NCBI GenBank assembly: GCA_937879875.1
Contig: CALFMN010000231.1
Coordinates: 1-64,000, forward strand
DNA from: an uncultured Chloroflexota bacterium
GTDB taxonomy: Bacteria; Chloroflexota; Dehalococcoidia; CAUJGQ01
Direction of reading: 5' to 3'
DNA: 64,000 nucleotides
Below, piece after piece: positions 58 to 38,421 of the stretch (within the stretch, counting starts at the first letter, position 1; the number at the start of each line of letters is the position of its first letter). The notes under the pieces are model-generated. The model was not told the DNA's origin and made no database searches. It worked only from the letters and a program-made list of their open reading frames with translations. The position numbers and the translations under genes were made by a program.

Positions 58-90
58 CGTGCTCCCCTATACCCTGTTCCCTATTCCCGA
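58..90. repeat. heptad-periodic repeat (CCCTATA/CCCTGTT/CCCTATT); G3N4 tracts on minus strand overlapping argG stop
   Basis: Direct reading: ccctataccctgttccctattccc; reverse complement gives GGGAATAGGGAACAGGGTATAGGGG. Confidence 0.6.
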
Positions 91-4145: not shown

Positions 4146-4229
4146 ACGAGAGCGGGTAGACGCCCGCCGGCCCGGCTGCGATGCTACCCCGCGGCAGGGT
4201 GTGGCCGCCGCCGCGGCGGGAGGGCAGGC

Positions 4230-4892
4230 GTGGACTTCGTCTTCGTGCGACACGGCATTACCGAGAACCTGGAAGGCGGGCGCATCCAGGGCTGGTCGCC
4301 GGCGCCGCTGTCCGCGCGCGGCCGCCAGCAGGCCGAGGCCGCGGCGAAGCGCCTCACGGCCGAGGGCAGCGCCGAGGCGCTCTACAGCAGCCCGGTGGCT
4401 CGCACGCTGGAGACGGCCAGCATCATCGGCGCCGAGCTGGAGCTGCCGGTGCAGCTGCTGCCCGGGCTGGCCGAGCGTCGCATGCCCAGCCGTTTCTGGG
4501 GTCTGCGCCGCGATGAGATTACCGACTATCTGGATGAGTTCGCCAAACACACGCGCGAGCCGGACTGGGCGTACGAAGACGAGGATTCGCTGCGCACGAT
4601 CATCGAACGGGCGCGCACGGTCGTGGACTTCCTGCACGAGCAGGCCGCGACACCCGGCCGCGCGGTGCTGGTGACGCACGGCACGATCCTGCGCTTCATC
4701 GTCGCCACGCTGCTGCTGGGCGAGGCCGCGCCGCCGGCGGCCTACGCCGACCTGCACGATTCGCTGCTCGGCCCGCAGCCCTGCGCTTTCGCCGAGGTCA
4801 CGCTCGGCCCGAAGCGCATGGCGATGCGCGGCTGGAACGACACCAACCACCTTGCCGGCCTGCTGGACTTCGACGGCGGGCCTGGGGCGTGA
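4230..4892 (+). CDS. histidine phosphatase family (phosphoglycerate mutase-like) protein
   Basis: FVRHG...RGRQQAEAAAKRL N-terminal RHG motif; 220 aa. Confidence 0.75.
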   Translation: MDFVFVRHGITENLEGGRIQGWSPAPLSARGRQQAEAAAKRLTAEGSAEALYSSPVARTLETASIIGAELELPVQLLPGLAERRMPSRFWGLRRDEITDYLDEFAKHTREPDWAYEDEDSLRTIIERARTVVDFLHEQAATPGRAVLVTHGTILRFIVATLLLGEAAPPAAYADLHDSLLGPQPCAFAEVTLGPKRMAMRGWNDTNHLAGLLDFDGGPGA

Positions 4893-4896
4893 AAGG

Positions 4897-4931
4897 GGTG
4901 AATGGGGAATGGTGAGTAGTGAGTGGTGAAC
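4897..4931. repeat. heptad-periodic repeat (GGTGAAT/GGGGAAT/GGTGAGT/AGTGAGT/GGTGAAC)
   Basis: Direct reading immediately after stop of histidine phosphatase gene. Confidence 0.55.
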
Positions 4932-5029
4932 GGGAGCCGGCCGCGGGCTCCGGGTTCCGACTCCGGTACGGCGCGCTGCGGGTCGCGGCTGCGCCGCGAG
5001 GGGCGCATGCCATGCGCCCCTACACTCAT

Positions 5030-5084
5030 TCCTCCGCCCTCTATTCCCTGTTCCCTAACCTCTATTCCCTCCGGCTCCCTCCGG
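5030..5084. repeat. heptad-periodic C3N4 repeat (CCTCTAT/TCCCTGT/TCCCTAA...); G3N4 on minus (mRNA) strand spanning stop of enoyl-CoA hydratase
   Basis: cctccgccctctattccctgttccctaacctctattccctccggctccctccgg; stop codon rc at 5062-5064 lies inside it. Confidence 0.6.
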
Positions 5085-5946
5085 CGCGGTAGTCGCCGTA
5101 TGGGCCGTCGCGCCAGGCGAGCGCCTCTTTGAGGCCGCCGCCGCTCTTCATTGAGTCGGCCACCTTCTCCTGCCAGAGATAGCCCTGGCCCGTGAACTGG
5201 TACATCGCGTCGGTATCGGTGGCCGTATGCACGGCGTTGGCGATGCCCATCGCCTCATAGAAGCAGTTGATCGAGCGCTTGATCACCGCCAGCGAGTCGC
5301 CGGTCTGAATGCCGATGCGCTCGGCCCAGCGCAGCGTCGTCGCCTCCAGCTCGTCCGCCGGCACAGCGGCGTTGATCAGGCCGATGCGCGCCGCCTCGCG
5401 CGCGTCGATCGAGTCGCCCGTATACATCAGCTCGTAGGTCTTGCGCATGCCGATCACCAGCGGCAGGATCGCGCAGGTGCGCGAAGTGCCGAGGCCGCGA
5501 ACGCCAGGATGGCCGAAGCGCGCGTCCTCGGCGGCGATCACGATGTCGTGCATCATCGCGAACTCGAGGCCACCCGCGATCGCGTAGCCGTGCACCTGCG
5601 CGATCGTCGGTTTGGCGATGTTGAACAGGTAGAGCTGAAAATCGGAGACGCGCACCATGTTGGTGCGGATCGTGCTCACTGAGCGGCGCTGGTTGTTTTG
5701 CATCGCCGGATACTGGCGGCGCGGGCCGGGTGTCAGGTCGTAGCCGGCGGAGAAGGTGCGGCCGGCGCCGCGCACGACGATCACGCTGACGCCGGGATCG
5801 TCCTCGGCCTCCTCCAGCGCACGGCGGAACTCCTGCAGCAGCTCGAAGCTGAGCGAGTTCATCTTCTCCGGCCGGTTGAGCGTAATCCGCGCGACGCGTT
5901 CGTTCGCGCCGATCTTCTCGTAGGTCAGGTTCTCAAACTCGGGCAT
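5062..5946 (-). CDS. enoyl-CoA hydratase/isomerase (crotonase family)
   Basis: ITLNRPEKMNSLS...SAGYDL crotonase signature; ATG with GGAGG RBS. Confidence 0.85.
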   Translation of the reverse strand: MPEFENLTYEKIGANERVARITLNRPEKMNSLSFELLQEFRRALEEAEDDPGVSVIVVRGAGRTFSAGYDLTPGPRRQYPAMQNNQRRSVSTIRTNMVRVSDFQLYLFNIAKPTIAQVHGYAIAGGLEFAMMHDIVIAAEDARFGHPGVRGLGTSRTCAILPLVIGMRKTYELMYTGDSIDAREAARIGLINAAVPADELEATTLRWAERIGIQTGDSLAVIKRSINCFYEAMGIANAVHTATDTDAMYQFTGQGYLWQEKVADSMKSGGGLKEALAWRDGPYGDYRAGGSRRE

Positions 5947-6021
5947 GGTTGAGCCTCCGGCGCGGGCAGTGGGCAGCAGGCAGTCGGGAGACCGCCCGCG
6001 CCATCGTGCCCGACCCGCGAA

Positions 6022-6708
6022 TTACGGCGAATCGCCGTTCACAGGCGTTGTAGCAGATTCGCGCCGCGACCGCAGCCATCCGCCGACCTCGATGAACGCC
6101 GCGCGGCGCTCGGCGGTAAGCCGGGCGACGCGGCCGCTCGTCGAGGGGACCACGAACACGACGATGCTATCCCAGTCTTCCGGCTGTCGACCCCAGCAGG
6201 CGCGCGGACGTCCCGCGAAGGCGCGAAAAGCCGTGTCGCCCACGAAACAGACGGCGGCCGGCCGAAACAGCCGCAGCCGCGCGGCCAGCGCCGCGCCGCC
6301 CGCGCGCCATTCGGCCGCGGTCACATCGCCCGTGCCGGCGGAAGGTCGCGCGACCACGTCCGTCAGCCCGACGCCGAGGTCGAGCAGGGCCGCATCTTCA
6401 TCCGGACGAAACAGGCGCGGCGTGATGCCTGCTTCGGCTAAAAGCGGCCAGAAGGCGTTGCCCGGCCGCGCGAAGTAGTGCCCGACGGCGGCCGAGAACA
6501 GCCCCGGATTGCAGCCGCAGAGCACGAGGTCGAGGCCGGGCCGCAGGTACGAGGGGAGAGGGTGAAGAGTGAGTGGTGAATGGTGAGTGGGGATAGCCGT
6601 CTGGCGACCACTCGCTGCACAAACGCCGCCAGCGCGATCGCCGCCGTATGGGTTTGCATGGGGCGCCGACGTACGGAATGCCTTCAAAGCACGATCACTC
6701 TTCACCAC
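6022..6708 (-). CDS. mug: G/U mismatch-specific DNA glycosylase (Mug/UDG family 2); start uncertain
   Basis: PGLDLVLCGCNPGLFSAAVGHYFARPGNAFW matches Mug LAPGLRVVFCGINPGLSSA; about 42 aa N-terminal extension read through a heptamer repeat; GTG at 6708 or a later non-canonical start. Confidence 0.65.
   Translation of the reverse strand: MVKSDRALKAFRTSAPHANPYGGDRAGGVCAASGRQTAIPTHHSPLTLHPLPSYLRPGLDLVLCGCNPGLFSAAVGHYFARPGNAFWPLLAEAGITPRLFRPDEDAALLDLGVGLTDVVARPSAGTGDVTAAEWRAGGAALAARLRLFRPAAVCFVGDTAFRAFAGRPRACWGRQPEDWDSIVVFVVPSTSGRVARLTAERRAAFIEVGGWLRSRRESATTPVNGDSP
6555..6592. repeat. heptad-periodic repeat (GGTGAAG/AGTGAGT/GGTGAAT/GGTGAGT) inside/upstream of mug 5' end
   Basis: Direct reading; encodes THHSPLTLHP if translated. 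Confidence 0.55.
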
Positions 6709-6721
6709 TCACCACTCACCA
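6697..6721. repeat. heptad-periodic repeat (TTCACCA/CTCACCA/CTCACCA), inverse orientation of 6555-6592 copy
   Basis: Between the hydratase stop (6722) and the mug GTG start. Confidence 0.55.
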
Positions 6722-7600
6722 CTACGCCCGCGGCTTGCTCTCCGCCGTGCGATAGTCGCGGAACGGGCCGTCGCGCCAGTCGAGCGCGGCCTTGAGGCCC
6801 TTCTCGCGCAGGATCGTGCCGAACATCTTGCCGCTGGGCCGATACGTGCTCAGCGCCTGGATGTCGGCGCCGGCGGCCAGCGCCGTGCGGATGCCCATCA
6901 CCTCGTAGGCGCGGTTGCAGCCGCGCTTCGACATTTGCAGCATGTCGCTTTCGATGTTGGCGATGCGCGCGGCGAAGCGCTCGGTCTCTTCCGCGAGCTG
7001 ATCCGCCGGATAGGCGCGGTTCGCCCAGCCGATGCGCACCGCCTCTTCGCCGCTGATCGAGTCGCCGGTGTAGAGCAGCTCGCGCGCCTTGCGCATCGGC
7101 ATGTGCCAGGGGTGGTAGACCATGTCCACCGTGGTCATCGCGCGCACCGGCGGATAGCCGAGAATCGCGTCTTCGGCGACGAACATCAGGTCGCAGAAGG
7201 TCGCCAGCTCGGTGCCGCCGGCGAGGCAGTAGCCATGCACCTGGGCGATCACAGGCTTGGCCAGCTCCCAGATCTGCCAGTAGCCGGAGAGCAGGTGCTG
7301 CGGCCACTGGCCCTGGCCCGGATGAATCGGACCGACGGCGGGCAGGCCGGAGCGGGTGTCTTGATACTGGCTCACGTCGTCGGTCTGGTTCGCGCCGCCG
7401 AGGTCGTAGCCGGCGGAGAAGGCACGCCCGGAGCCGCGGATGATGGCAACGCGCACGTCGGCGTCGGCTTCTGCGCTCTTCAGCGCGTCGAAGACCTCGG
7501 AGCGCAGCCGGTGTGAGAGCGCGTTCATCTTCTCCGGCCGGTTGAGGGTAATGATCGCCAGCCGGTCCTTCGTTTCGTAGAGGATGTCGCTGTAGCCCAT
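6722..7600 (-). CDS. enoyl-CoA hydratase/isomerase (crotonase family), paralog
   Basis: ITLNRPEKMNALS...SAGYDL; start MGYSDIL at 7600 with AAGGAGG RBS; the track ORF extends further upstream without support. Confidence 0.85.
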   Translation of the reverse strand: MGYSDILYETKDRLAIITLNRPEKMNALSHRLRSEVFDALKSAEADADVRVAIIRGSGRAFSAGYDLGGANQTDDVSQYQDTRSGLPAVGPIHPGQGQWPQHLLSGYWQIWELAKPVIAQVHGYCLAGGTELATFCDLMFVAEDAILGYPPVRAMTTVDMVYHPWHMPMRKARELLYTGDSISGEEAVRIGWANRAYPADQLAEETERFAARIANIESDMLQMSKRGCNRAYEVMGIRTALAAGADIQALSTYRPSGKMFGTILREKGLKAALDWRDGPFRDYRTAESKPRA

Positions 7601-7926
7601 CGCTGCCTCCTTGCTGCCGGATGGGAAGGCACCTTGCCGGCACTGCCGCCCGCCGGCTTGCCGCGCCGGCGGAGCACGTTGCTCGGCCAGCTCTCCGAAG
7701 ACCGGCGCCGTGATGACTGGCTGCCGGCCATGCCCAGTATAGGCACGAAGCGACACTGAGCGCAGACCACCGCATGCCGCGGTTCGGGAATGGCTCTGCG
7801 ATCAGTTGTTCATATCTGCAGATCCGCGCTTGACACGCGTACGTAGAATACCTGCACACGCGGCGCCCGCGCGGCCAGAGGGAAACCGTTGCGGCGGCGG
7901 CGCGCCATGAGCGGGAGGCGGCCGGC

Positions 7927-10092: not shown

Positions 10093-10256
10093 GGCGTGTG
10101 GCTCTCATACCATCGGATGGGTAGGGGCGCGTGCAACGCGCCTCGCAGCGCGCCGGTTCACCCGACACGCCTTGCCCGCTCAACGCAGGATCGCCCCTGT
10201 CGCCCGTTTCCACGATGTATTCAGATGCATCGGAGGAAAGGACGGGGTCAGGCGCC

Positions 10257-10320
10257 AGAGCGCAGCGCAACCGTCGGCGACTTTGGCCAGAGCGCAGCGC
10301 AACCGTCGGCGACTTTGAAT
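10257..10320. promoter_or_regulatory. tandem direct repeat 2 x AGAGCGCAGCGCAACCGTCGGCGACTTTG(AAT), about 100 nt upstream of amidohydrolase
   Basis: Exact tandem copies at 10257-10286 and 10287-10320; third copy at 11472-11501. Confidence 0.5.
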
Positions 10321-10421
10321 GAGGGCCGCCTCCCGCCTGATTGACCGCGCGCCGCCCGCCGGGGTTAACTACAGCCGTGGCGCGCCTTGCGGCGTTGCCT
10401 CTCAGACTCTCCCGGAGGCGT

Positions 10422-13879: not shown

Positions 13880-13965
13880 GGCCCTCACCCCCGTCCCCTC
13901 TCCCAATCCTGGGCGAGGGGCGATCCGGCGTGTAGTGTTCCGTGGCCGGCGCGATTAACCGGATG
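13880..13965. repeat. MITE-like family A, solo left-end copy (copy 3)
   Basis: GGCCCTCACCCCCGTCCCCTCTCCCAATCCTGGGCGAGGGGCGATCC + GATTAACCGG tail; between convergent MFS and GT2 genes. Confidence 0.55.
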
Positions 13966-13996: not shown

Positions 13997-15238
13997 TCAG
14001 GGCGAGCGCCTCAGCGTTTGCCCTTGTGGAGCGTTTTGCTCCCGCGGCGTCACGATGCGGCCGTCGCGGGCGATACGCAGGCGGCGCCCGCGCCAGACGA
14101 CGGTCGTGCTGCACAGGCTCCAGCAATACGCGGCGAGCAAGGCCGACATGGACAGCGGTAACAGCACGTAGCCGCTCGCGCGTGCACGCGTGCCGATGCC
14201 GGCGCGGCCGGTCAAAAGCGGCGAGGCGGCGGCGGCAAGTCCGAACACGGTTAGCGCACGCGCACGCTCGTGCATGGCGTCGCGTTGCAGCGGCAGCGAG
14301 GCAAGCGCCGCGAGCGGCAGCAGCCAGCCGAGCAGGATCAGGGCCATGCAGGCGTACTCGGCCGGCTTCATGCGGCGCAGCCCCACCAGCCAGCGCTGCC
14401 AGTGGCGCAGCAGTTCCGCCCAGCTCAGCGGCGCGGCCAGCACGTCCACCGGCCGGCGCAGCAGCGCACAACGCCAGCCCTGCCGCCGCAGCGCCCGCTC
14501 AAGCGCGATGTCTTCGGTGAGGAAGCGGCCGAGAGCGGCGAAGCCTCCGGCCGCGTCGACGCACTCGCGCCGCACGAGCATCAGCGTGCCCCAGAGGCCG
14601 TGCGCCCCGCGCAGTTGCGCCGACGCATACTCGAATGGCGCCAGCACGTTGTTGACGAGCACCTGCTCCAGCCGCGCCGGCAGCCCCGCGGCGAAGACGA
14701 TCTGCGGCGTGGCCGACACCGCGCCGGTCCGCTCGTCAATCGCGGCAGCGAAGCGACGCAGGGTGTCCCGGTCGGCCAGGGTATCTGAGTCGGAGATCAG
14801 CAGCCAGTCGTGGAGCGCGTCGGCAGCCGCGGCCGCCAGGTTGTGCGACTTGCCGTTCACGCCTGGGTCGGGGTTCGGCCCGGAGAGCACGCAGCGCACC
14901 TGTCCGGCGAACTCGCTGGCCAGGGCAACGGCGAGCGAGTACAGCGGTTCGGCCGCGTCCTCGAAGGCGAAGATCAACTCCCACCCCGCCGGATACTCGA
15001 GCATGCACCACGAACGAAACGCCGCTTCCGCCTGCGGTTCCGTTCCGTGCACCGGCTTGAGGATCGAAATCGGCGGGAAGAGCGTGGCAAGCGGCTCCGC
15101 CCCGTACCGGAAGCGGATCGCCAGCAGATCGCGCAACACAAGCCCGATCGCCACGCACAGCACCGCCTGCGCCAGCGCATCGCCATGCACCAGCCAGTGC
15201 AGCGCGCTACCCGCCGCTTCGCCCATGAGCGCCCGCAC
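13997..15238 (-). CDS. glycosyltransferase family 2 (ceramide glucosyltransferase-like)
   Basis: ISILKPVHG...SDSDT...LTEDIALE GT2/ceramide-GlcT motifs with C-terminal TM segments. Confidence 0.8.
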   Translation of the reverse strand: MRALMGEAAGSALHWLVHGDALAQAVLCVAIGLVLRDLLAIRFRYGAEPLATLFPPISILKPVHGTEPQAEAAFRSWCMLEYPAGWELIFAFEDAAEPLYSLAVALASEFAGQVRCVLSGPNPDPGVNGKSHNLAAAAADALHDWLLISDSDTLADRDTLRRFAAAIDERTGAVSATPQIVFAAGLPARLEQVLVNNVLAPFEYASAQLRGAHGLWGTLMLVRRECVDAAGGFAALGRFLTEDIALERALRRQGWRCALLRRPVDVLAAPLSWAELLRHWQRWLVGLRRMKPAEYACMALILLGWLLPLAALASLPLQRDAMHERARALTVFGLAAAASPLLTGRAGIGTRARASGYVLLPLSMSALLAAYCWSLCSTTVVWRGRRLRIARDGRIVTPREQNAPQGQTLRRSP

Positions 15239-15290
15239 CCTCCGCCCTCCGCCCTCTATTTCCTATTCCCTAACCCCTATTCCCTATCGG
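15236..15290. repeat. heptad-periodic C3N4 repeat in 5' UTR of GT2 gene (G-rich on mRNA strand; includes the SD)
   Basis: accctccgccctccgccctctatttcctattccctaacccctattccctatc. Confidence 0.6.
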
Positions 15291-19297: not shown

Positions 19298-19511
19298 GGC
19301 CCTCACCCCCGCCCCCTCTCCCAATCCTGGGCGAGGGGCGATCCCGCGTGGAGCGACCCGCAGCGGCACCGGGTTAACCGTTGTGATCACGCTGTACCTC
19401 ACCCAACAGCAAGGTTAACCGTACCGGCCCCGGAACTTCCTCCCCGGGATCGCCCCTCTCCTTCTCCCAGGATTGGGAGAAGGAGAGGGGACGGGGGTGA
19501 GGATAAGGGCC
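19298..19511. mobile_element. MITE-like element family A, copy 4 (both TIRs intact)
   Basis: Left TIR 19298-19345, inverted right TIR 19445-19511, internal GGGTTAACCG motifs. Confidence 0.6.
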
Positions 19512-29325: not shown

Positions 29326-29334
29326 CCCGCCCTC

Positions 29335-29524
29335 TATCCCCCGTCCCCCCTTTCTCCCAATCGTTCACATCGCGCACAGCGCGATCTGGAATGGAGAAAG
29401 GGGCGATCGTGCGCAGCACGACTCGGACGCTGCCGGGTTAACCGTTTGGTGCTCGGAACGCTTCAGGCTGGATCGCCCCTCGCCCAGGATTGGGAGAGGG
29501 GACGGGGGTGAGGGCGAGGGCCGG
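29335..29524. mobile_element. MITE-like element family A, copy 5 (left TIR with loop insertion, right TIR intact)
   Basis: Between convergent moeA and hydrolase genes; GGGTTAACCGTTTGGTGCTCGGAACGCT internal motif. Confidence 0.55.
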
Positions 29525-33269: not shown

Positions 33270-33408
33270 GGCCCTCACCCCCGTCCCCTCTCCCAATCCT
33301 GGGAGAGGGGCGATCCCGCGTCGGGCGATCCGATCGGTTTGCGGTTAACCGTTTGCTGCTCGGAACGCTCAGTGCAGGATCGTCTCCTTCCCTCCAGAAT
33401 TGGGGATC
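33270..33408. repeat. MITE-like family A, copy 6 (intact left TIR, decayed right TIR)
   Basis: GGCCCTCACCCCCGTCCCCTCTCCCAATCCTGGGAGAGGGGCGATCCCG ... GCGGTTAACCGTTTGCTGCTCGGAACGCTCAG ... degenerate inverted end. Confidence 0.55.
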
Positions 33409-33697
33409 GTGTCATGAGACAGGAGAGGTTGAGGGCCGAAGGTGGCGCCCGTGCTTCAGCCGCCGCTTGCCTGCAGTCAGTCCGGCGTGCTGATCAACCG
33501 CTCGAAGTCAGGCCCGAAGCGCCGCCGCAGGCCGTCCAGCCGTGCCGCTCCCACAAACTCGATCGCAAGCCGGCCGTTCCCGCCTCCACGTAGGACAATC
33601 CACCGAGCAGGATCGCGGCGGCGAGATCTGCCGAGCTGCTGGCGGGGCCGCGGAAGCGCAGCGGCATCGCATCGCGGGTCGGTTGAAAATAGAAGGC

Positions 33698-33726
33698 TTG
33701 TGCCGCTCGCGGTTGAGTTCTATAAT
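33698..33726 (+). promoter_or_regulatory. candidate sigma-A promoter for the rrf2-cys operon (TTGTGC - 17 nt - TATAAT)
   Basis: Perfect TATAAT at 33721-33726 in an AT-rich patch about 50 nt upstream of the rrf2 start. Confidence 0.45.
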
Positions 33727-33774
33727 GTTGATAAGATTAGTCCACTTTAGGGCGGGCTTGCCGGGGTTGAGGGA

Positions 33775-34209
33775 GTGAAGGTTTCCACCAAAGGCGATTA
33801 CGGCGTGCGGGCGCTGATTGAGCTGGCGCTGCACTACGGCCAGGGGCCGCTGCAGAGCGCCGAGATCGCCGCCCGCCAGCGCATTCCCGAACCGTATCTT
33901 GACCACCTGCTGACCACGCTGCGACGTGCCGGCTTCATCCGCAGCGTGCGCGGGCCGCAGGGCGGCCACGAGCTGGTGCGCGAGCCTGACAAACTGCCGC
34001 TCGACGAGGTGATCGAGTCGCTCGAAGGCTCACTGATCCCCAGCGCCTGTCTGGACGAGGGCAGCCCCTGCGCCAGGCACGGCGGTTGCGCCCAGCGCGA
34101 GATGTGGCAGGAGGTCTACGACGCGACGCGCGAGATCCTGCACCGCACCACGATTGCGGATCTGGCGGCGCGCGAGCGCCAGCCGGCCGGCGGGCGTTAC
34201 TACATTTAG
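33775..34209 (+). CDS. Rrf2 family transcriptional regulator (CymR/IscR-like)
   Basis: MKVSTKGDYGVRALIELA wHTH N-terminus; three Cys in C-terminal half; directly upstream of cysK. Confidence 0.85.
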   Translation: MKVSTKGDYGVRALIELALHYGQGPLQSAEIAARQRIPEPYLDHLLTTLRRAGFIRSVRGPQGGHELVREPDKLPLDEVIESLEGSLIPSACLDEGSPCARHGGCAQREMWQEVYDATREILHRTTIADLAARERQPAGGRYYI

Positions 34210-34257
34210 GGCGTAGGGCGTAGGGCGTAGGGCGTAGGGCGTAGGGCGTAGGGCGTA
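34209..34257 (+). repeat. (GGGCGTA)x7 perfect tandem heptamer; canonical G3N4 quadruplex motif in the rrf2-cysK spacer
   Basis: Direct reading; overlaps the rrf2 TAG stop and ends 8 nt before the cysK ATG (GGAGGG RBS follows). Confidence 0.85.
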
Positions 34258-34265
34258 GGAGGGTC

Positions 34266-35243
34266 ATGAAGCAGGCGGCGCAAGTGGGCGATGGCGTTGA
34301 GGCCGGGGGTGGCACGGCGGCGGTGCGCACGACGTGCGTGGCCGATTCGGTGCTGGATCTCGTCGGCAACACGCCGCTGGTGCGGCTGAACCGGCTGCCG
34401 GGGCCGCGCAGCGCCGCCGTGCTGGGCAAGCTGGAATCGCTCAACCCGGCCGGCAGCGTCAAAGACCGCATCGCCGTGGCGATGGTCGAAGCGGCCGAGC
34501 GCGAGGGGCGCCTGCAGCCTGGCGCCACGATCGTCGAGCCGACCAGCGGCAATACCGGCATCGGCCTGGCAATGGTCGCCGCGGTCAAGGGCTACCGCCT
34601 GATTCTGACCATGCCCGAAGACATGAGCATGGAGCGGCGCAAGCTGTTCACCCGCTTCGGCGCCGAACTGCGGCTCACACCGGCGCTCGAGGGCATGACC
34701 GGCGCCGTCTTCGCCGCCGAAGAACTGGTGCGCGAGCACCCCGAATACTTCATGCCTCAGCAGTTCCAGAATCCGGCCAACCCCGAGATCCATCGCCTGA
34801 CCACCGGCCCGGAGATCCTGCACGCCACCGGCGGCAGGGTCGATGCCTTCGTCGCCGGCGTGGGTACGGGCGGTACGATCACCGGCGTGGGCGAGGTGCT
34901 GCGTGCATACAACCCAAGCACGTTGATCGTCGCGGTTGAACCAGCGCGCTCGCAGATCCTGCGCGGCGGCCGCGCCGGCATGCACGCGATCCAGGGCATC
35001 GGCGCGAGCTTCGTGCCCGGCGTGCTGAACCGGCAGGTCTATCAGGAGCTGATGGCCGTGGGCGACGACGACGCGATCGAGATGTCGCAGCGGCTTGCAC
35101 GGGAGGAGGGGCTGCTGGTGGGCATCTCCTCCGGCGCCAACGTCTTCGCGGCGCTCAAGGTCGCGCGGCGGCTGGGCGCCGGCAAAACCGTCGTGACGAT
35201 GCTCTGCGACACCGGCGAACGGTATCTCAGCGCGGCCGTGTAA
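34266..35243 (+). CDS. cysK: cysteine synthase A (O-acetylserine sulfhydrylase)
   Basis: PLP Lys motif SVKDR, TSGNTGIGLA, full length. Confidence 0.9.
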   Translation: MKQAAQVGDGVEAGGGTAAVRTTCVADSVLDLVGNTPLVRLNRLPGPRSAAVLGKLESLNPAGSVKDRIAVAMVEAAEREGRLQPGATIVEPTSGNTGIGLAMVAAVKGYRLILTMPEDMSMERRKLFTRFGAELRLTPALEGMTGAVFAAEELVREHPEYFMPQQFQNPANPEIHRLTTGPEILHATGGRVDAFVAGVGTGGTITGVGEVLRAYNPSTLIVAVEPARSQILRGGRAGMHAIQGIGASFVPGVLNRQVYQELMAVGDDDAIEMSQRLAREEGLLVGISSGANVFAALKVARRLGAGKTVVTMLCDTGERYLSAAV

Positions 35244-35342
35244 CGGTTTGGACGATCGCGACGACTGAAGATGATTGACGATGATTGACATTTTTGTGGC
35301 TGGGACCGCCGCTCCGTCCGGACCCTGAGGGAGAGAACACGC

Positions 35343-36452
35343 ATGACCGTCCAGGTCTACATTCCGACGCCGTTCCGCCGTCTCACCGGCAACCGCACGC
35401 GCGTCGCAGCCGAAGGCCAGACCGTGGGCGAGGTGCTGCGGCGTCTGAACGAGCACTACCCCGGCTTCAACGAGCTGCTGTACGACGAATCGAAGGCGAT
35501 CCCGGCGCATATCAACATCTACCTGAACAACCAGGAGATTCACAGTCTTCAGGGAGAGGAGACCCCCGTGGCAGACGGAGACGAAGTTGCAGTGATTCCC
35601 GCAATCGCGGGCGGATCGGGCACGGCGCTGCGGCCCGATCAGGTAACGCGCTACTCGCGGCACATCATCATGCCGCAGGTGGGGCCGGTCGGACAGCGCA
35701 AATTAATGGCGGCGAAAGTGCTGATCGTCGGCGCGGGCGGGCTCGGCTCGCCGGTCTCGCTCTATCTGGCGCTCGCGGGCATCGGCACGATCGGCATCGT
35801 CGACTTCGACGTGGTCGATCTGACCAACCTGCAACGGCAGATCCTGCACCAGAACGACGACATCGGCCGGCCGAAGGTCGACTCGGCGCGCGAAACGTTG
35901 AACTCGTATAACCCCGACGTCAACGTGATCACGCACGAGGTGCCGCTCACGTCCGAGAACGCGCTGGAGATCATCCCGCAGTACGACATCGTCGTGAACG
36001 GCGCGGACAACTTCGCCACGCGCTATCTCGTCAACGACGCCTGCTATCTCTCCGGCAAGCCGCTGGTGGACGGCAGCATCCTGCTGTTCGACGGCCAGGC
36101 CTCGACCTATCTGCCGGGCAAGGGCTGCTATCGCTGCCTCTTCCCGGAGCCGCCGCCGCCGGGCATGGTGCCCTCCTGCGCCGAAGCGGGCGTGCTCGGC
36201 GCCCTCTGCGGCACGGTGGGCTCGATCCAGGCGACGGAAGTGCTGAAGCTGATCCTCGGCGTGGGCGAGCCTCTCATCGGCCGGCTGCTGCTGTACGACG
36301 CGCTCTCGATGGAGATGCGTACCGTGAAGACGCGGCGCGACCCGAAGTGCCCGCTCTGCGGCGACAACCCGACCGTGACCGAGCTGATCGATTACGATGC
36401 CTTCTGTGGCGGCCCGCCGCACGTGGCCAACGCGCCGGTTGCGGCCGGCTAG
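35343..36452 (+). CDS. fusion protein: N-terminal CysO/MoaD-like sulfur carrier (ends ...AIAGG) + MoeZ/MoeB/ThiF-type E1 adenylyltransferase (no rhodanese domain)
   Basis: Residues 1-92 align with the stand-alone carrier at 36508; then RYSRHI, GAGGLGS, two CxxC pairs of an E1; single ORF, GAGGGA RBS. Confidence 0.8.
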   Translation: MTVQVYIPTPFRRLTGNRTRVAAEGQTVGEVLRRLNEHYPGFNELLYDESKAIPAHINIYLNNQEIHSLQGEETPVADGDEVAVIPAIAGGSGTALRPDQVTRYSRHIIMPQVGPVGQRKLMAAKVLIVGAGGLGSPVSLYLALAGIGTIGIVDFDVVDLTNLQRQILHQNDDIGRPKVDSARETLNSYNPDVNVITHEVPLTSENALEIIPQYDIVVNGADNFATRYLVNDACYLSGKPLVDGSILLFDGQASTYLPGKGCYRCLFPEPPPPGMVPSCAEAGVLGALCGTVGSIQATEVLKLILGVGEPLIGRLLLYDALSMEMRTVKTRRDPKCPLCGDNPTVTELIDYDAFCGGPPHVANAPVAAG

Positions 36453-36507
36453 CATCCTGAACAGACACGCGGCGGGGCTTTCGCGCCCCGCCGAGGAGTT
36501 GTGGTCA

Positions 36508-36786
36508 ATGGCCGTCGAAGTCCGTGTCACCGCCGTGCTGCAGAAGCTCACGGGAGGCAAGAAGAGCGTGCCCGCCGAGGGCGGCACGGTGGACCAGCTG
36601 CTCAAGAATCTCGACACCAACTACCCCGGCTTCCGCCACCAGGTGCAGGGCGATGACGGCAGGCTGCACCGCTTCGTCAACATCTACCTGAACGACGAGG
36701 ACATCCGCTATCTCAGTCAGCTCAACACGCCGCTCAAAGACGGTGATGTGGTCTCCATCCTGCCGGCGCTGGCGGGCGGCGCATGA
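36508..36786 (+). CDS. cysO: CysO/MoaD-like ubiquitin-fold sulfur carrier ending ...LAGGA
   Basis: 92 aa; paralog of the N-domain of the preceding fusion; C-terminal GG followed by one Ala; GAGGAG RBS. Confidence 0.75.
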   Translation: MAVEVRVTAVLQKLTGGKKSVPAEGGTVDQLLKNLDTNYPGFRHQVQGDDGRLHRFVNIYLNDEDIRYLSQLNTPLKDGDVVSILPALAGGA

Positions 36787-36861
36787 ACCGCCGCCTTTGG
36801 GGGCTGCCCGAGGGCTTCGGCCTGCGCGCCGGGGCGTCGGCGGTGTCGCCGCCGCGCCTAC

Positions 36862-36994
36862 CCCTGCCGGCTAACGCCGGCTGTCCCCTCCCCACAGGGG
36901 AGGGGTTGGTCTGAGGAACCCCGGTAGCCCTCGGACCACCCTTCCCGCGTCGGGAAGGGAGATTTCGCTTAAGCGAAATCGGGGTTAGGTAGCC
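36862..36994. repeat. MITE-like family B, compact copy (serial perfect hairpins)
   Basis: GCCGGCTAACGCCGGC, CCCCTCCCCACAGGGGAGGGG, CCCTTCCCGCGTCGGGAAGGG, GATTTCGCTTAAGCGAAATC, GGGGTTAGGTAGCC; homologous to 42339-42557. Confidence 0.55.
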
Positions 36995-37064
36995 GCGTGG
37001 CTGCCAGAGCCTCGTCCTGCACTATCCCCTGCGACCATGCATTGTGCCCGCCTCGGGAGGCTCC

Positions 37065-38003
37065 ATGCTTTACGCGAACATCCTCGACGCGATCGGCAAC
37101 ACACCGCTGGTCGAGCTGCCGCACACCAGCCCCAACCCGAACGTCAAGATCTACGCCAAGCTCGAGGGCCAAAACCCCTCGGGCAGCGTCAAAGACCGCT
37201 GCGCCAAGTACATGATCGACGCCGCCGAGCGCGATGGCCTGCTCGACGACGACAAGATCATTCTGGAGCCGACCAGCGGCAACACGGGCATCGCCCTGGC
37301 GATGATCGGCCGCGTCAAGGGCTACCAGGTGATGGTCGTGATCCCGGAGAGCGTCAGCGAGGAGCGGAGTCAGCTCCTGCGCGCCTACGGCGCCGAGATC
37401 GTCTACTCCGAGGGGCTGAAGGGCACCAACGGCTCGATCGCCGTGGCGCAGCAGATGGTGGCCGAGGCGCCGCAGCGCTTCTACATGCCGTATCAATACG
37501 GCAACGAGGCCAACCCCCGCGCCCACTACGAAACCACCGGCCCGGAGATCGTGCGTGACCTGCCGGACATCGATGTCTTCGTCGCCGGCCTCGGCACGGG
37601 CGGCACGCTCACCGGCACCGGCCGCTACCTCAAGGAATACAACCCGAAGATCAAGGTCATCGCCACGGTGCCGCACCCTGGCGATTTGGTGCAGGGGCTG
37701 CGCAGCCTGGAAGAGGGCTTCATCCCGCCCGTGCTGGACGAGTCGGTGCTCGACGGCCGCGTGGTGGTCGACAGCCGCACCGCCTTCGCCGCCACCAAAG
37801 AGCTGACGCAGCAAGAAGGCATCTTCGCCGGCATCTCCTGCGGCGCGGCGGTGAAGACGGCGCAGCGCATCGCCGGGCGCATGGAGAGCGGCAAAGTCGT
37901 CGTCTTGCTGGCGGACGGCGGCTGGAAATACCTTTCAACCGCGCTGTGGACGACCGAGTACGGCGATCTGCCCGAGGACATCGACAGCAAGGTCTGGTGG
38001 TAG
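37065..38003 (+). CDS. cysM: cysteine synthase, CysM-type (CysO-thiocarboxylate dependent)
   Basis: SVKDR PLP motif, TSGNTGIALA; ATG at 37065 with GGGAGG RBS. Confidence 0.85.
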   Translation: MLYANILDAIGNTPLVELPHTSPNPNVKIYAKLEGQNPSGSVKDRCAKYMIDAAERDGLLDDDKIILEPTSGNTGIALAMIGRVKGYQVMVVIPESVSEERSQLLRAYGAEIVYSEGLKGTNGSIAVAQQMVAEAPQRFYMPYQYGNEANPRAHYETTGPEIVRDLPDIDVFVAGLGTGGTLTGTGRYLKEYNPKIKVIATVPHPGDLVQGLRSLEEGFIPPVLDESVLDGRVVVDSRTAFAATKELTQQEGIFAGISCGAAVKTAQRIAGRMESGKVVVLLADGGWKYLSTALWTTEYGDLPEDIDSKVWW

Positions 38004-38010
38004 CAGAGCC

Positions 38011-38421
38011 GTGACGCTGACGCTGCCGCGCGACTACGTCGAACAGATCGTCGCCCACGCCCGCCGCGAGGCGCCGAACGAGTGCTGCGGCGTGGTCGCG
38101 GGCAAGGACGGCGCCGCGGTCAAGCTCTGGCAGGCGACGAACGCCGAGCACAGCCCCTACCGCTACAGTATCGAGGGCAAAGAACTGCTGCAGATCATGC
38201 GGCTGCTGCAAGACAACGACTGGGAGATGTTGGCCGTCTATCACTCGCACACGCACACGCCTGCCTATCCAAGCCCCACCGACCGGCGCCAGGTGATGCT
38301 CTCCGGCTGGGACCAGCCGTACTATGTGCTTGTCTCGCTCGCCGAAGAGCCGCCGGACGTGCGCGCCTACACGATCCGCGATGGCGCCATCGCCGAGCAG
38401 CGGTTGATCGTGAATGACTAG
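38011..38421 (+). CDS. mec: JAMM/MPN+ metalloprotease (Mec+-type)
   Basis: E-x(n)-HSHTHTPAYPSPTD JAMM motif; 136 aa. Confidence 0.85.
   Translation: MTLTLPRDYVEQIVAHARREAPNECCGVVAGKDGAAVKLWQATNAEHSPYRYSIEGKELLQIMRLLQDNDWEMLAVYHSHTHTPAYPSPTDRRQVMLSGWDQPYYVLVSLAEEPPDVRAYTIRDGAIAEQRLIVND

Follow-up and report, generated by a model that had tools for sequence, protein, structure and literature searches.

A probably hypermutable G-rich heptanucleotide array between rrf2 and cysK in an uncultured Chloroflexota bacterium, and its likely descent from a dispersed composite element

Is a perfect G-rich microsatellite inside a bacterial operon a control device of the gene that follows it, or a repeat that expanded where it was seeded? 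We analysed this question for a 64,000-nucleotide stretch of DNA from an uncultured Chloroflexota bacterium (contig CALFMN010000231.1, positions 1 to 64,000; hereafter the window), in which a heptanucleotide array separates rrf2, encoding an Rrf2-family transcriptional regulator, from cysK, encoding cysteine synthase A (Table 1). Tandem Repeats Finder (TRF) assigns the array period 7, 7.6 copies, 100% matches and the consensus TAGGGCG. As can be seen from the letters of the junction (34200-34270: ...TAC TAC ATT TAG, GGCGTAG x7, GAGGGTC ATG), the TAG stop codon of rrf2 (34207-34209) is part of the first unit, and the 3' end of the array merges into GGAGGG, the Shine-Dalgarno (SD) sequence of cysK, which is followed after 2 nt by the ATG at 34266; the array itself ends 6 nt before this ATG. 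TRF and direct reading confirm what an initial annotation, made from the sequence alone, had claimed: seven exact GGGCGTA heptamers (34209-34257) that overlap the stop codon and abut the SD within a 56-nt spacer (34210-34265). The G-rich strand is the mRNA sense strand, and TAG recurs every 7 nt, which places stops in all three frames. A search of the window with the 21-nt triple unit, allowing up to 3 mismatches, returned five overlapping matches, all within the array, compared with 0.00 expected in 100 dinucleotide-preserving shuffles. No other array of the GGGCGTA unit was found in the window or in 168 other loci, so that the unit is unique to the rrf2-cysK site. The array is a real, non-random heptamer microsatellite. 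Its zero mismatches over 53 nt imply a recent expansion, and its copy number is probably polymorphic in the population. Identical-protein look-ups for strain-level copy numbers, which merge similar places into one, returned the source contig alone.

We compared the orthologous junction in relatives, taken from 148 loci and from further contigs reached via near-identical Rrf2 proteins. In the six closest lineages, with Rrf2 at least 89% identical, the TAG is followed by G-rich, heptamer-phased sequence whose unit and copy number (2-7.6) differ from lineage to lineage. The arrays are near-perfect in the window, in L083, (GGGAACA)6.4, and in L084, (GGCAKCA)4.3, and degenerate, with heptamer phasing over two to five units, in L163/L164, L165 and L166. 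No heptamer repeat was found at the junction in six lineages at 83-87% Rrf2 identity, nor generally below about 88%. Rrf2 ends in a conserved ...GGRYYI*, with the stop-codon position kept in 140+ relatives, and the start of the CysK protein, MK(Q/R)..., is conserved in L083, L163 and L166. The non-repeat 17-nt spacer is invariant across four independent samples and, therefore, the turnover is specific to the repeat. Copy number at this site is far from identical everywhere, and the differences in both unit and copy number among relatives support the earlier proposal of a slippage-prone microsatellite.

The likely source of the array was suggested by sequences elsewhere in the window. A 27-nt composite, TTAGGGAAYAGGRAATAGAGGGCGGAG, has exact matches at two unlinked window sites, 5032-5058 and 15247-15273, both on the minus strand and both within period-7 arrays, where none is expected. 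Its 20-nt core matches the rrf2-cysK spacer of L163 (2873-2892) and of L164 (2895-2914), and in an alignment (A4) the L163 spacer shares its register with two window arrays (5020-5064 and 15222-15290). The GGGAAYA composite, which is related to the array, is present both at the orthologous L163 site and at these two unlinked places in the window; a search of viral contigs gave 0 matches. The sharing of the composite between unlinked sites and the L163 spacer argues for a dispersed composite heptamer element, of which a copy came to lie after the rrf2 TAG in the ancestor of the clade. As far as can be judged from sequence, the window array is probably a slippage-homogenised derivative of this element: its unit, TAGGGCG, is one base off AGGGCGG, which occurs in tandem at the 3' end of the composite (15238-15256). 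By the same kind of comparison, the perfect (GGGAACA)6 of L083 reads as an expansion of one composite unit. One orthologous site thus presents a series from absence, through a degenerate composite, to lineage-specific perfect arrays with different units, and this series shows unit turnover by homogenisation.

These observations can be arranged into a scenario in which the ancestor of a genus-level clade would have gained a copy of the dispersed element directly after the rrf2 TAG, and replication slippage would then have enlarged and homogenised separate units in each lineage, (T)AGGGCG in the window and GGGAACA in L083. The array would stretch a junction that was ancestrally short or overlapping (-1 to 17 nt) to 56 nt. 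Translation of cysK would then rely on its own GGAGGG site, not on termination-reinitiation coupling, and an effect of the array on translational coupling via spacer length is plausible. The array may also transiently form an RNA G-quadruplex (G4). We think it likely that a hypermutable simple-sequence repeat (SSR) with a G-rich heptanucleotide unit, derived from the composite and expanded by slippage, makes up the array.

Period 7 is not peculiar to this junction. In a TRF census of the window and 162 related loci (1.03 Mb), 33 arrays reached 3.5 copies and 85% identity, and 19 of them had this period. An unbiased lag-match scan of the window found three period-7 segments against 0.05 expected, and none with periods 4-6 or 8-9; in 955 kb of other loci the same scan found 24 segments with period 7, compared with 1, 4 and 1 for periods 5, 6 and 8, while the coding-compatible periods 9 and 12 gave 13 and 9. 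Among tandem periods that are not multiples of a triplet, period 7 is thus by far the commonest, in the window as in the roughly 1 Mb of related loci. Across the related loci the units are highly diverse, and most lack a GGG tract. Arrays are also placed non-randomly: 15 of the 52 period-7 segments start between -12 and +9 nt from the stop of a coding-like open reading frame (ORF), whereas 2.3 are expected when the same arrays are shifted by 25-150 nt, a roughly 6-fold enrichment over the whole dataset. The window holds six period-7 arrays besides the one after rrf2 (Table 1), and five of the seven abut or overlap a sense-strand stop codon. In every stop-anchored window array the sense strand is the G-rich or G/T-rich one.

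Two of the sister arrays, of the GTGGTGA type, form an inverted pair, flanked on one side by an enoyl-CoA hydratase-like gene, whose stop is at 6722, and on the other by a Mug/uracil-DNA-glycosylase-like ORF. One (6700-6725, minus strand) starts at the TAG stop of the gene at 6722-7756, and its complementary arm (6561-6590, plus strand) follows on the same transcript, some 110 nt downstream and immediately before the Mug-like ORF; the pair could form a long intercistronic stem. Long heptamer arrays were also seen in more distant Chloroflexota and Methylomirabilota loci (L006 6722-6801, L024 7393-7438 and L066 4903-4924), examples being (CCAGTCA)x11.6 and a stop-anchored (GGGGRTC)n close to the GGGGAYT unit of Nostoc.

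How does the array relate to heptamer repeats described before? The tandem heptanucleotides of cyanobacteria known as short tandemly repeated repetitive (STRR) sequences, described by Mazel et al. in 1990, are reportedly dispersed in intergenic regions, including spacers within operons, and the array, lying in such a spacer, resembles them. STRR sequences reportedly comprise few defined units per genome and belong to heterocystous cyanobacteria, in which they differ from the Chloroflexota arrays, although the two are set apart by description only. Three such heptanucleotides are attributed to Calothrix PCC 7601 in a citation within PMC4692102.

The closest counterparts are the G-rich heptamers that Rehm et al. 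(2015, PLoS One) described from Xanthomonas (GGGAATC) and Nostoc (GGGGAYT), which have a 7-nt unit with one tract of three or more G, occur in tandem from 2 to more than 20 units, and are over-represented in non-coding DNA between aligned ORFs (PMC4692102). They are mostly transcribed, sometimes form inverted pairs, and occupy the same gene pairs in related species with extensive variation in length and sequence; they form G4s in vitro, and no role was identified for them (PMC4692102). The array likewise has 7.6 perfect G3 units (8 GGG tracts with the SD), lies between the co-directional genes rrf2 (+) and cysK (+), and takes different units in 2-7.6 copies at one site in six lineages. The repeats of Rehm et al. 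lie 0-50 bp from a stop codon or overlap it, with the coding strand G-rich; the first unit of the array holds the rrf2 TAG, and four other window arrays are likewise at a stop with G-rich sense strand. Sister arrays in the window are near-identical to theirs in unit type (GGGAATA, GGGAACA). In position, composition and evolution the array belongs with this class. It differs in phylum, coming from an uncultured Chloroflexota/'Dehalococcoidia' metagenome-assembled genome (MAG); in that GGGCGTA, over the 64 kb plus 170 loci searched, occurs at a single site and not as a recurring consensus unit; in the far greater heterogeneity of units in the Chloroflexota lineage; and in that its G4 is a predicted one.

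MacGregor (2015) described TAACTGA direct repeats between genes of marine Beggiatoaceae, Cyanobacteria and Bacteroidetes. These place a stop in each of the three frames, often overlap the stop of the preceding gene and finish a few nucleotides short of the next start codon, and a post-transcriptional role with binding by S1, Csp or CsrA-type proteins was proposed for them (PMC4679880). The Chloroflexota array shares the three-frame stops, the overlap with the upstream stop and the ending a few nucleotides before the start, and here too the neighbouring genes have no common function. Unlike the A/T-rich, fixed TAACTGA unit, which lacks G4 potential and usually replaces a recognisable SD, the unit here is TAGGGCG and a strong GGAGGG follows. 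Period 7 is, according to Mrazek, Guo and Shah (2007) as summarised in PMC4692102 and PMC4679880, the most abundant class of prokaryotic long SSRs, attributed to polymerase slippage, in relation to how long a piece of DNA the active site of the polymerase accommodates. The dominance of period 7 is common to both datasets; the mutational account, in that summary, does not predict stop anchoring, sense bias or a dispersed composite. A literature search, of incomplete coverage, found no report of heptamer repeats in Chloroflexi/Chloroflexota.

Several points weigh against derivation from the composite followed by slippage. The link between GGGCGTA and the AGAGGGCGGAG part of the composite is one of similarity (AGGGCGG versus AGGGCGT), with no intermediate found between the composite unit and the window unit, and the exact unit occurs at the rrf2-cysK site only. 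Copy-number polymorphism is deduced, not directly observed from reads or strains. The anchoring statistic uses crude ORF calls based on G+C content at third codon positions, and the 52 segments include some that overlap. Slippage alone hardly explains the strict anchoring at stops or the G bias of the sense strand, which may be signs of selection, or of a mode of insertion for which the slippage account makes no provision. Neither this account nor the literature explains how the composite reached unlinked sites and why arrays anchor at stops on the sense strand.

Table 1. Coordinates of the array and other window features, followed by the sequence after the rrf2 stop in relatives (L-numbers are locus handles; Rrf2 identities are relative to the window)
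Feature	Position	Strand	Evidence and details
Heptanucleotide array (TAGGGCG)x7.6 = TAG + (GGCGTAG)x7	34207-34259	+	TRF, direct reading
Operon promoter and operator, inferred	33698-33750	+	Five-lineage alignment A2
Rrf2-family transcriptional regulator gene, 144 aa	33775-34209	+	Pfam PF02082, 128.7 bits
cysK SD GGAGGG (34258-34263) and ATG (34266-34268)	34258-34268	+	Sequence
cysK, cysteine synthase A, 325 aa	34266-35243	+	PF00291; TIGR01139 equivalog
ThiS-ThiF/MoeZ-like fusion	35343-36452	+	Pfam, NCBIfam
ThiS/MoaD-like carrier	36505-36786	+	Pfam, NCBIfam
Second cysteine synthase, CysK/M subfamily	37044-38003	+	Pfam, NCBIfam
JAB/desampylase-like gene	38011-38421	+	Pfam, NCBIfam
Sister array	60-88	-	TRF; overlaps TAG stop (83-81) of gene 81-1424; sense reading GTCGGGA ATAGGGA ACAGGGT ATAGGGG
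Sister array, GGTGAGT-type	4890-4925	+	Starts at TGA stop (4890-4892) of gene 4146-4892; reading GGGGTGA ATGGGGA ATGGTGA GTAGTGA GTGGTGA
Sister array with composite element	5020-5064	-	Overlaps TAG stop (5064-5062) of gene 5062-6021; composite exact match 5032-5058; sense reading GGGAA TAG AGGTTAGGGAACAGGGAATAGAGGGCGGAGG
Inverted pair, GTGGTGA-type arrays	6561-6725	-	TRF
Sister array with composite element	15222-15290	-	TRF; 5' leader of gene with ATG 15229 (-); composite 15247-15273; reading GATAGGGAATAGGGGTTAGGGAATAGGAAATAGAGGGCGGAGGGCGGAGGG
REP-like element, near-exact copies	13882-13913, 19300-19331, 29483-29514, 33272-33303	-, -, +, -	
REP-like element, diverged copies	1448-1469, 1632-1666, 29326-29358	-, +, -	
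Junction, window (Rrf2 100%)			TAG (GGCGTAG)x7
Junction, L083 (93%)			TAG (GGAACAG)x6, then 36 nt
Junction, L163/L164 (93%)			TAG GGATTAG GTGTTAG GGAACAG GGAATAG AGGGACG...
Junction, L084 (91%)			TAG (GCAKCAG)x4
Junction, L165 (89%)			TAG GGACTAG GGACG...
Junction, L166 (89%)			TAG GAATCCA GGGTACA GGGCAA ATG
Junction, L171, L167, L168 (87%, 86%, 85%)			Spacer 1, 1, -1 nt; genes abut or overlap
Junction, L085 and L172-175 (84%)			17-nt spacer without repeat, identical in four independent samples
Junction, L169 (84%)			AT-rich 38-nt spacer, no repeat
Junction, L086 (83%)			Short spacer without repeat
Junction, more distant relatives (lower identity)			Short spacers or overlaps

It is possible that what matters in the array is its capacity to fold. 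The eight GGG tracts (seven in the array, and that of the SD 7 nt past the last of them), with loops of 4-7 nt, fit the canonical G3N1-7 motif and give a G4Hunter maximum of 1.44 (25-nt window); the textbook G4 motif seen by the initial annotation on the mRNA-sense strand is thus present as a pattern. One or two G4s, in the RNA or in the non-template DNA, might control cysK translation, mRNA stability or transcription, and full two-G4 occupancy would sequester the GGG of the SD. GGGAATC-type heptamers, also with 4-nt loops, do form G4s in vitro by circular dichroism, yet Rehm et al. found no regulatory role for their repeats (PMC4692102). At the same junction, at least four G3 tracts with loops of at most 7 nt are present in the window, L083 and L163/L164, but not in L084, L165 or L166; of the six lineages with an array, only three are therefore G4-capable, and six lineages at 83-87% Rrf2 identity lack the array-bearing spacer entirely, which does not suit the idea of a G4 as conserved function. 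Most period-7 arrays of related genomes have no G3 tract at all.

The predicted energetics are divided. In ViennaRNA with G4 energies, one G4 contributes -8.4 kcal/mol and two contribute -13.6 kcal/mol, the second using the GGG of the SD, compared with -20.7 kcal/mol for an alternative self-hairpin full of mismatches, and the unconstrained minimum free energy (MFE) structure is non-G4 at 37 °C and at 55 °C. With lonely pairs forbidden, however, the MFE structure has one G4 (-18.1 versus -16.4 kcal/mol without), and at 25 °C it has two, including the SD tract. The canonical fold of the array is a weak, mismatch-rich hairpin that is only marginally more stable than those of shuffles (z = -2.1); no C-rich inverted partner involving the array was found within about 1 kb, and an Rfam 15 scan of the whole window gave 0 matches at the gathering threshold. 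When the repeat number was varied in silico from 0 to 12, the predicted Watson-Crick accessibility of the SD and AUG stayed flat (0.48-0.54). We consider a functional G4 unlikely. An array selected as a cysK-specific G4 or coupling switch is unsupported by conservation or predictions and stands as a minority hypothesis. Instead of a cysK-specific device, the array is part of a lineage-wide, stop-anchored period-7 habit and is probably composite-derived; it should not be annotated as a cysK riboregulator.

We rejected the abundance of canonical G4 motifs in the window (12 against 3.1±1.5 expected, about 4-fold) as support for a G4 role, as 7 of the 12 sites belong to one unrelated dispersed element. 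This intergenic element, of about 85 nt, resembles repetitive extragenic palindromes (REP) or miniature inverted-repeat transposable elements (MITE), with the consensus GGTTAACCG...GGATCGCCCCTCGCCCAGGATTGGGAGAGGGGACGGGGGTGAGGGCCG and the hairpin CCCCTCGCCC/GGGAGAGGGG; a search for its 19-nt core gave no match in the other loci retrieved, L001 and L002 being copies of the window. The window further contains two copies of a perfect 32-nt direct repeat (GCCAGAGCGCAGCGCAACCGTCGGCGACTTTG, 10254-10317), just upstream of a gene starting near 10341.

The heptamers might instead be read as periodic mRNA sites for a single-strand binder with a footprint of about 7 nt (a Csp-like OB fold, S1 or a CsrA-like protein), serving as post-transcriptional punctuation. 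Such a platform would agree with what the arrays have in common, which is the 7-nt period and not the unit sequence, and with their non-random position at stop codons on the sense strand; a similar role has been proposed for TAACTGA repeats, and CspB binds one protein per heptamer (PMC4679880). The extreme diversity of units within and between genomes nevertheless makes a binder with sequence specificity less likely, close relatives do without the array, and the candidate protein is hypothetical only, so we regard this explanation as quite unlikely. Anti-SD mimicry and a CsrA motif, considered from sequence only, were dropped, since neither matches the TAGGGCG unit. Slippage is expected of a perfect SSR, and relatives do differ in copy number, as they would at a contingency locus where copy-number changes switch cysK or rrf2 ON and OFF. 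But the array lies past the rrf2 stop and before the cysK SD, where a 7-nt change leaves both the reading frame and the SD-AUG spacing intact, no promoter-like site was found across it, SD accessibility is predicted to be the same with 0-12 copies, and the neighbours serve housekeeping sulfur metabolism and are not surface or adaptation genes; phase variation is highly improbable. That the array arose in metagenome assembly is scarcely credible: the contig is of MEGAHIT-style k141 type and we saw no second, independent assembly of this strain, but at 53 nt the array falls below k=141, analogous arrays stand at the same site in independent related assemblies (JGI, NCBI, ENA), and L163 and L164 are identical across two records.

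We analysed the genes on either side of the array and their likely transcription. The window belongs to a 137-kb metagenome contig (ENA ERZ27245795); at species level the nearest genomes are Chloroflexota/'Dehalococcoidia' MAGs, whose CysK proteins reach no more than 78% identity. Further domain assignments for the operon come from Pfam hits already computed for the genes called on the source contig. The identity of cysK is borne out by the TIGR01139 equivalog (434 bits, cutoff 350.95). For the regulator, which had been called CymR-like, membership of the Rrf2 superfamily is established, as the only NCBIfam model it passes; CymR (NF047409) is the top-scoring named subfamily, but the score of 110 bits misses the 195-bit equivalog cutoff. 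Some homologues of the regulator are named 'cysteine metabolism repressor' by JGI. The protein carries a C-x6-C-x5-C motif, which suggests an Fe-S cluster and which we take to be unlike Bacillus CymR. The gene set downstream of cysK looks like a sulfur-carrier-protein cysteine pathway, and the operon rrf2-cysK-(ThiS-ThiF fusion)-ThiS-cysK/M-JAB (33775-38421) presumably resembles the CysO/CysM/Mec+/MoeZ pathway of Mycobacterium.

Upstream of rrf2, a putative promoter consists of a weak -35 (TTGTGC, 33698-33703), a 17-nt spacer and the -10 TATAAT (33721-33726), adjoined by a conserved operator-like box, ATGTTGATAAGATTAGTCCACTTTAG (33725-33750). The promoter scores under the threshold of our consensus scanner and was placed from the alignment of five lineages, which has invariant columns over CTAyAATGTTGAT..TTAGTC..CTTT; the -10 box and the adjoining box ATGTTGAT..TTAGTC..CTTTAG are common to all five. 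The box ATGTTGATAAGATTAGTCCACTTTAG is probably an autoregulatory Rrf2 binding site. A scan of 33300-38300 found no promoter-like or terminator-like site in the rrf2-cysK spacer, which weakens the initial interpretation. Because the array lies inside the operon, downstream of a conserved promoter and operator and in a terminator-free spacer, we infer that it is transcribed, and that there would be a single autoregulated transcript with the array inside. The rrf2 leader also carries TTTAGGGCG, the same 9-mer as the array start. The spacer between cysK and thiS-thiF holds a period-10 repeat, (TGAAGATGAT/TGACGATGAT)x2.4 at 35266-35289, with TTGACA after it.

The function of bacterial heptamer repeats (STRRs, GGGNATC, TAACTGA) has been an open question since 1990. 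The array taken alone is an ordinary member of this class; it extends the phenomenon to an uncultured Chloroflexota lineage and, together with the arrays around it, adds quantitative evidence that arrays are anchored at sense-strand stops, a pattern beyond the reach of simple slippage. One further idea, which we hold to be doubtful, is that sense-strand purine- or G-rich heptamer arrays anchored exactly at stops are a selected post-transcriptional 'punctuation' seeded by a spreading composite. If this were true, how strongly adjacent cistrons are expressed relative to each other, or how stable they are, would be set by the arrays, with RNA G4s or a periodic OB-fold protein platform as candidate mechanisms, and the seed would be a composite heptamer element of about 30-40 nt spreading to new stop codons. 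The rrf2-cysK array would then tune the regulator-to-enzyme ratio of the sulfur-carrier cysteine pathway, and the same principle may hold beyond this Chloroflexota lineage.

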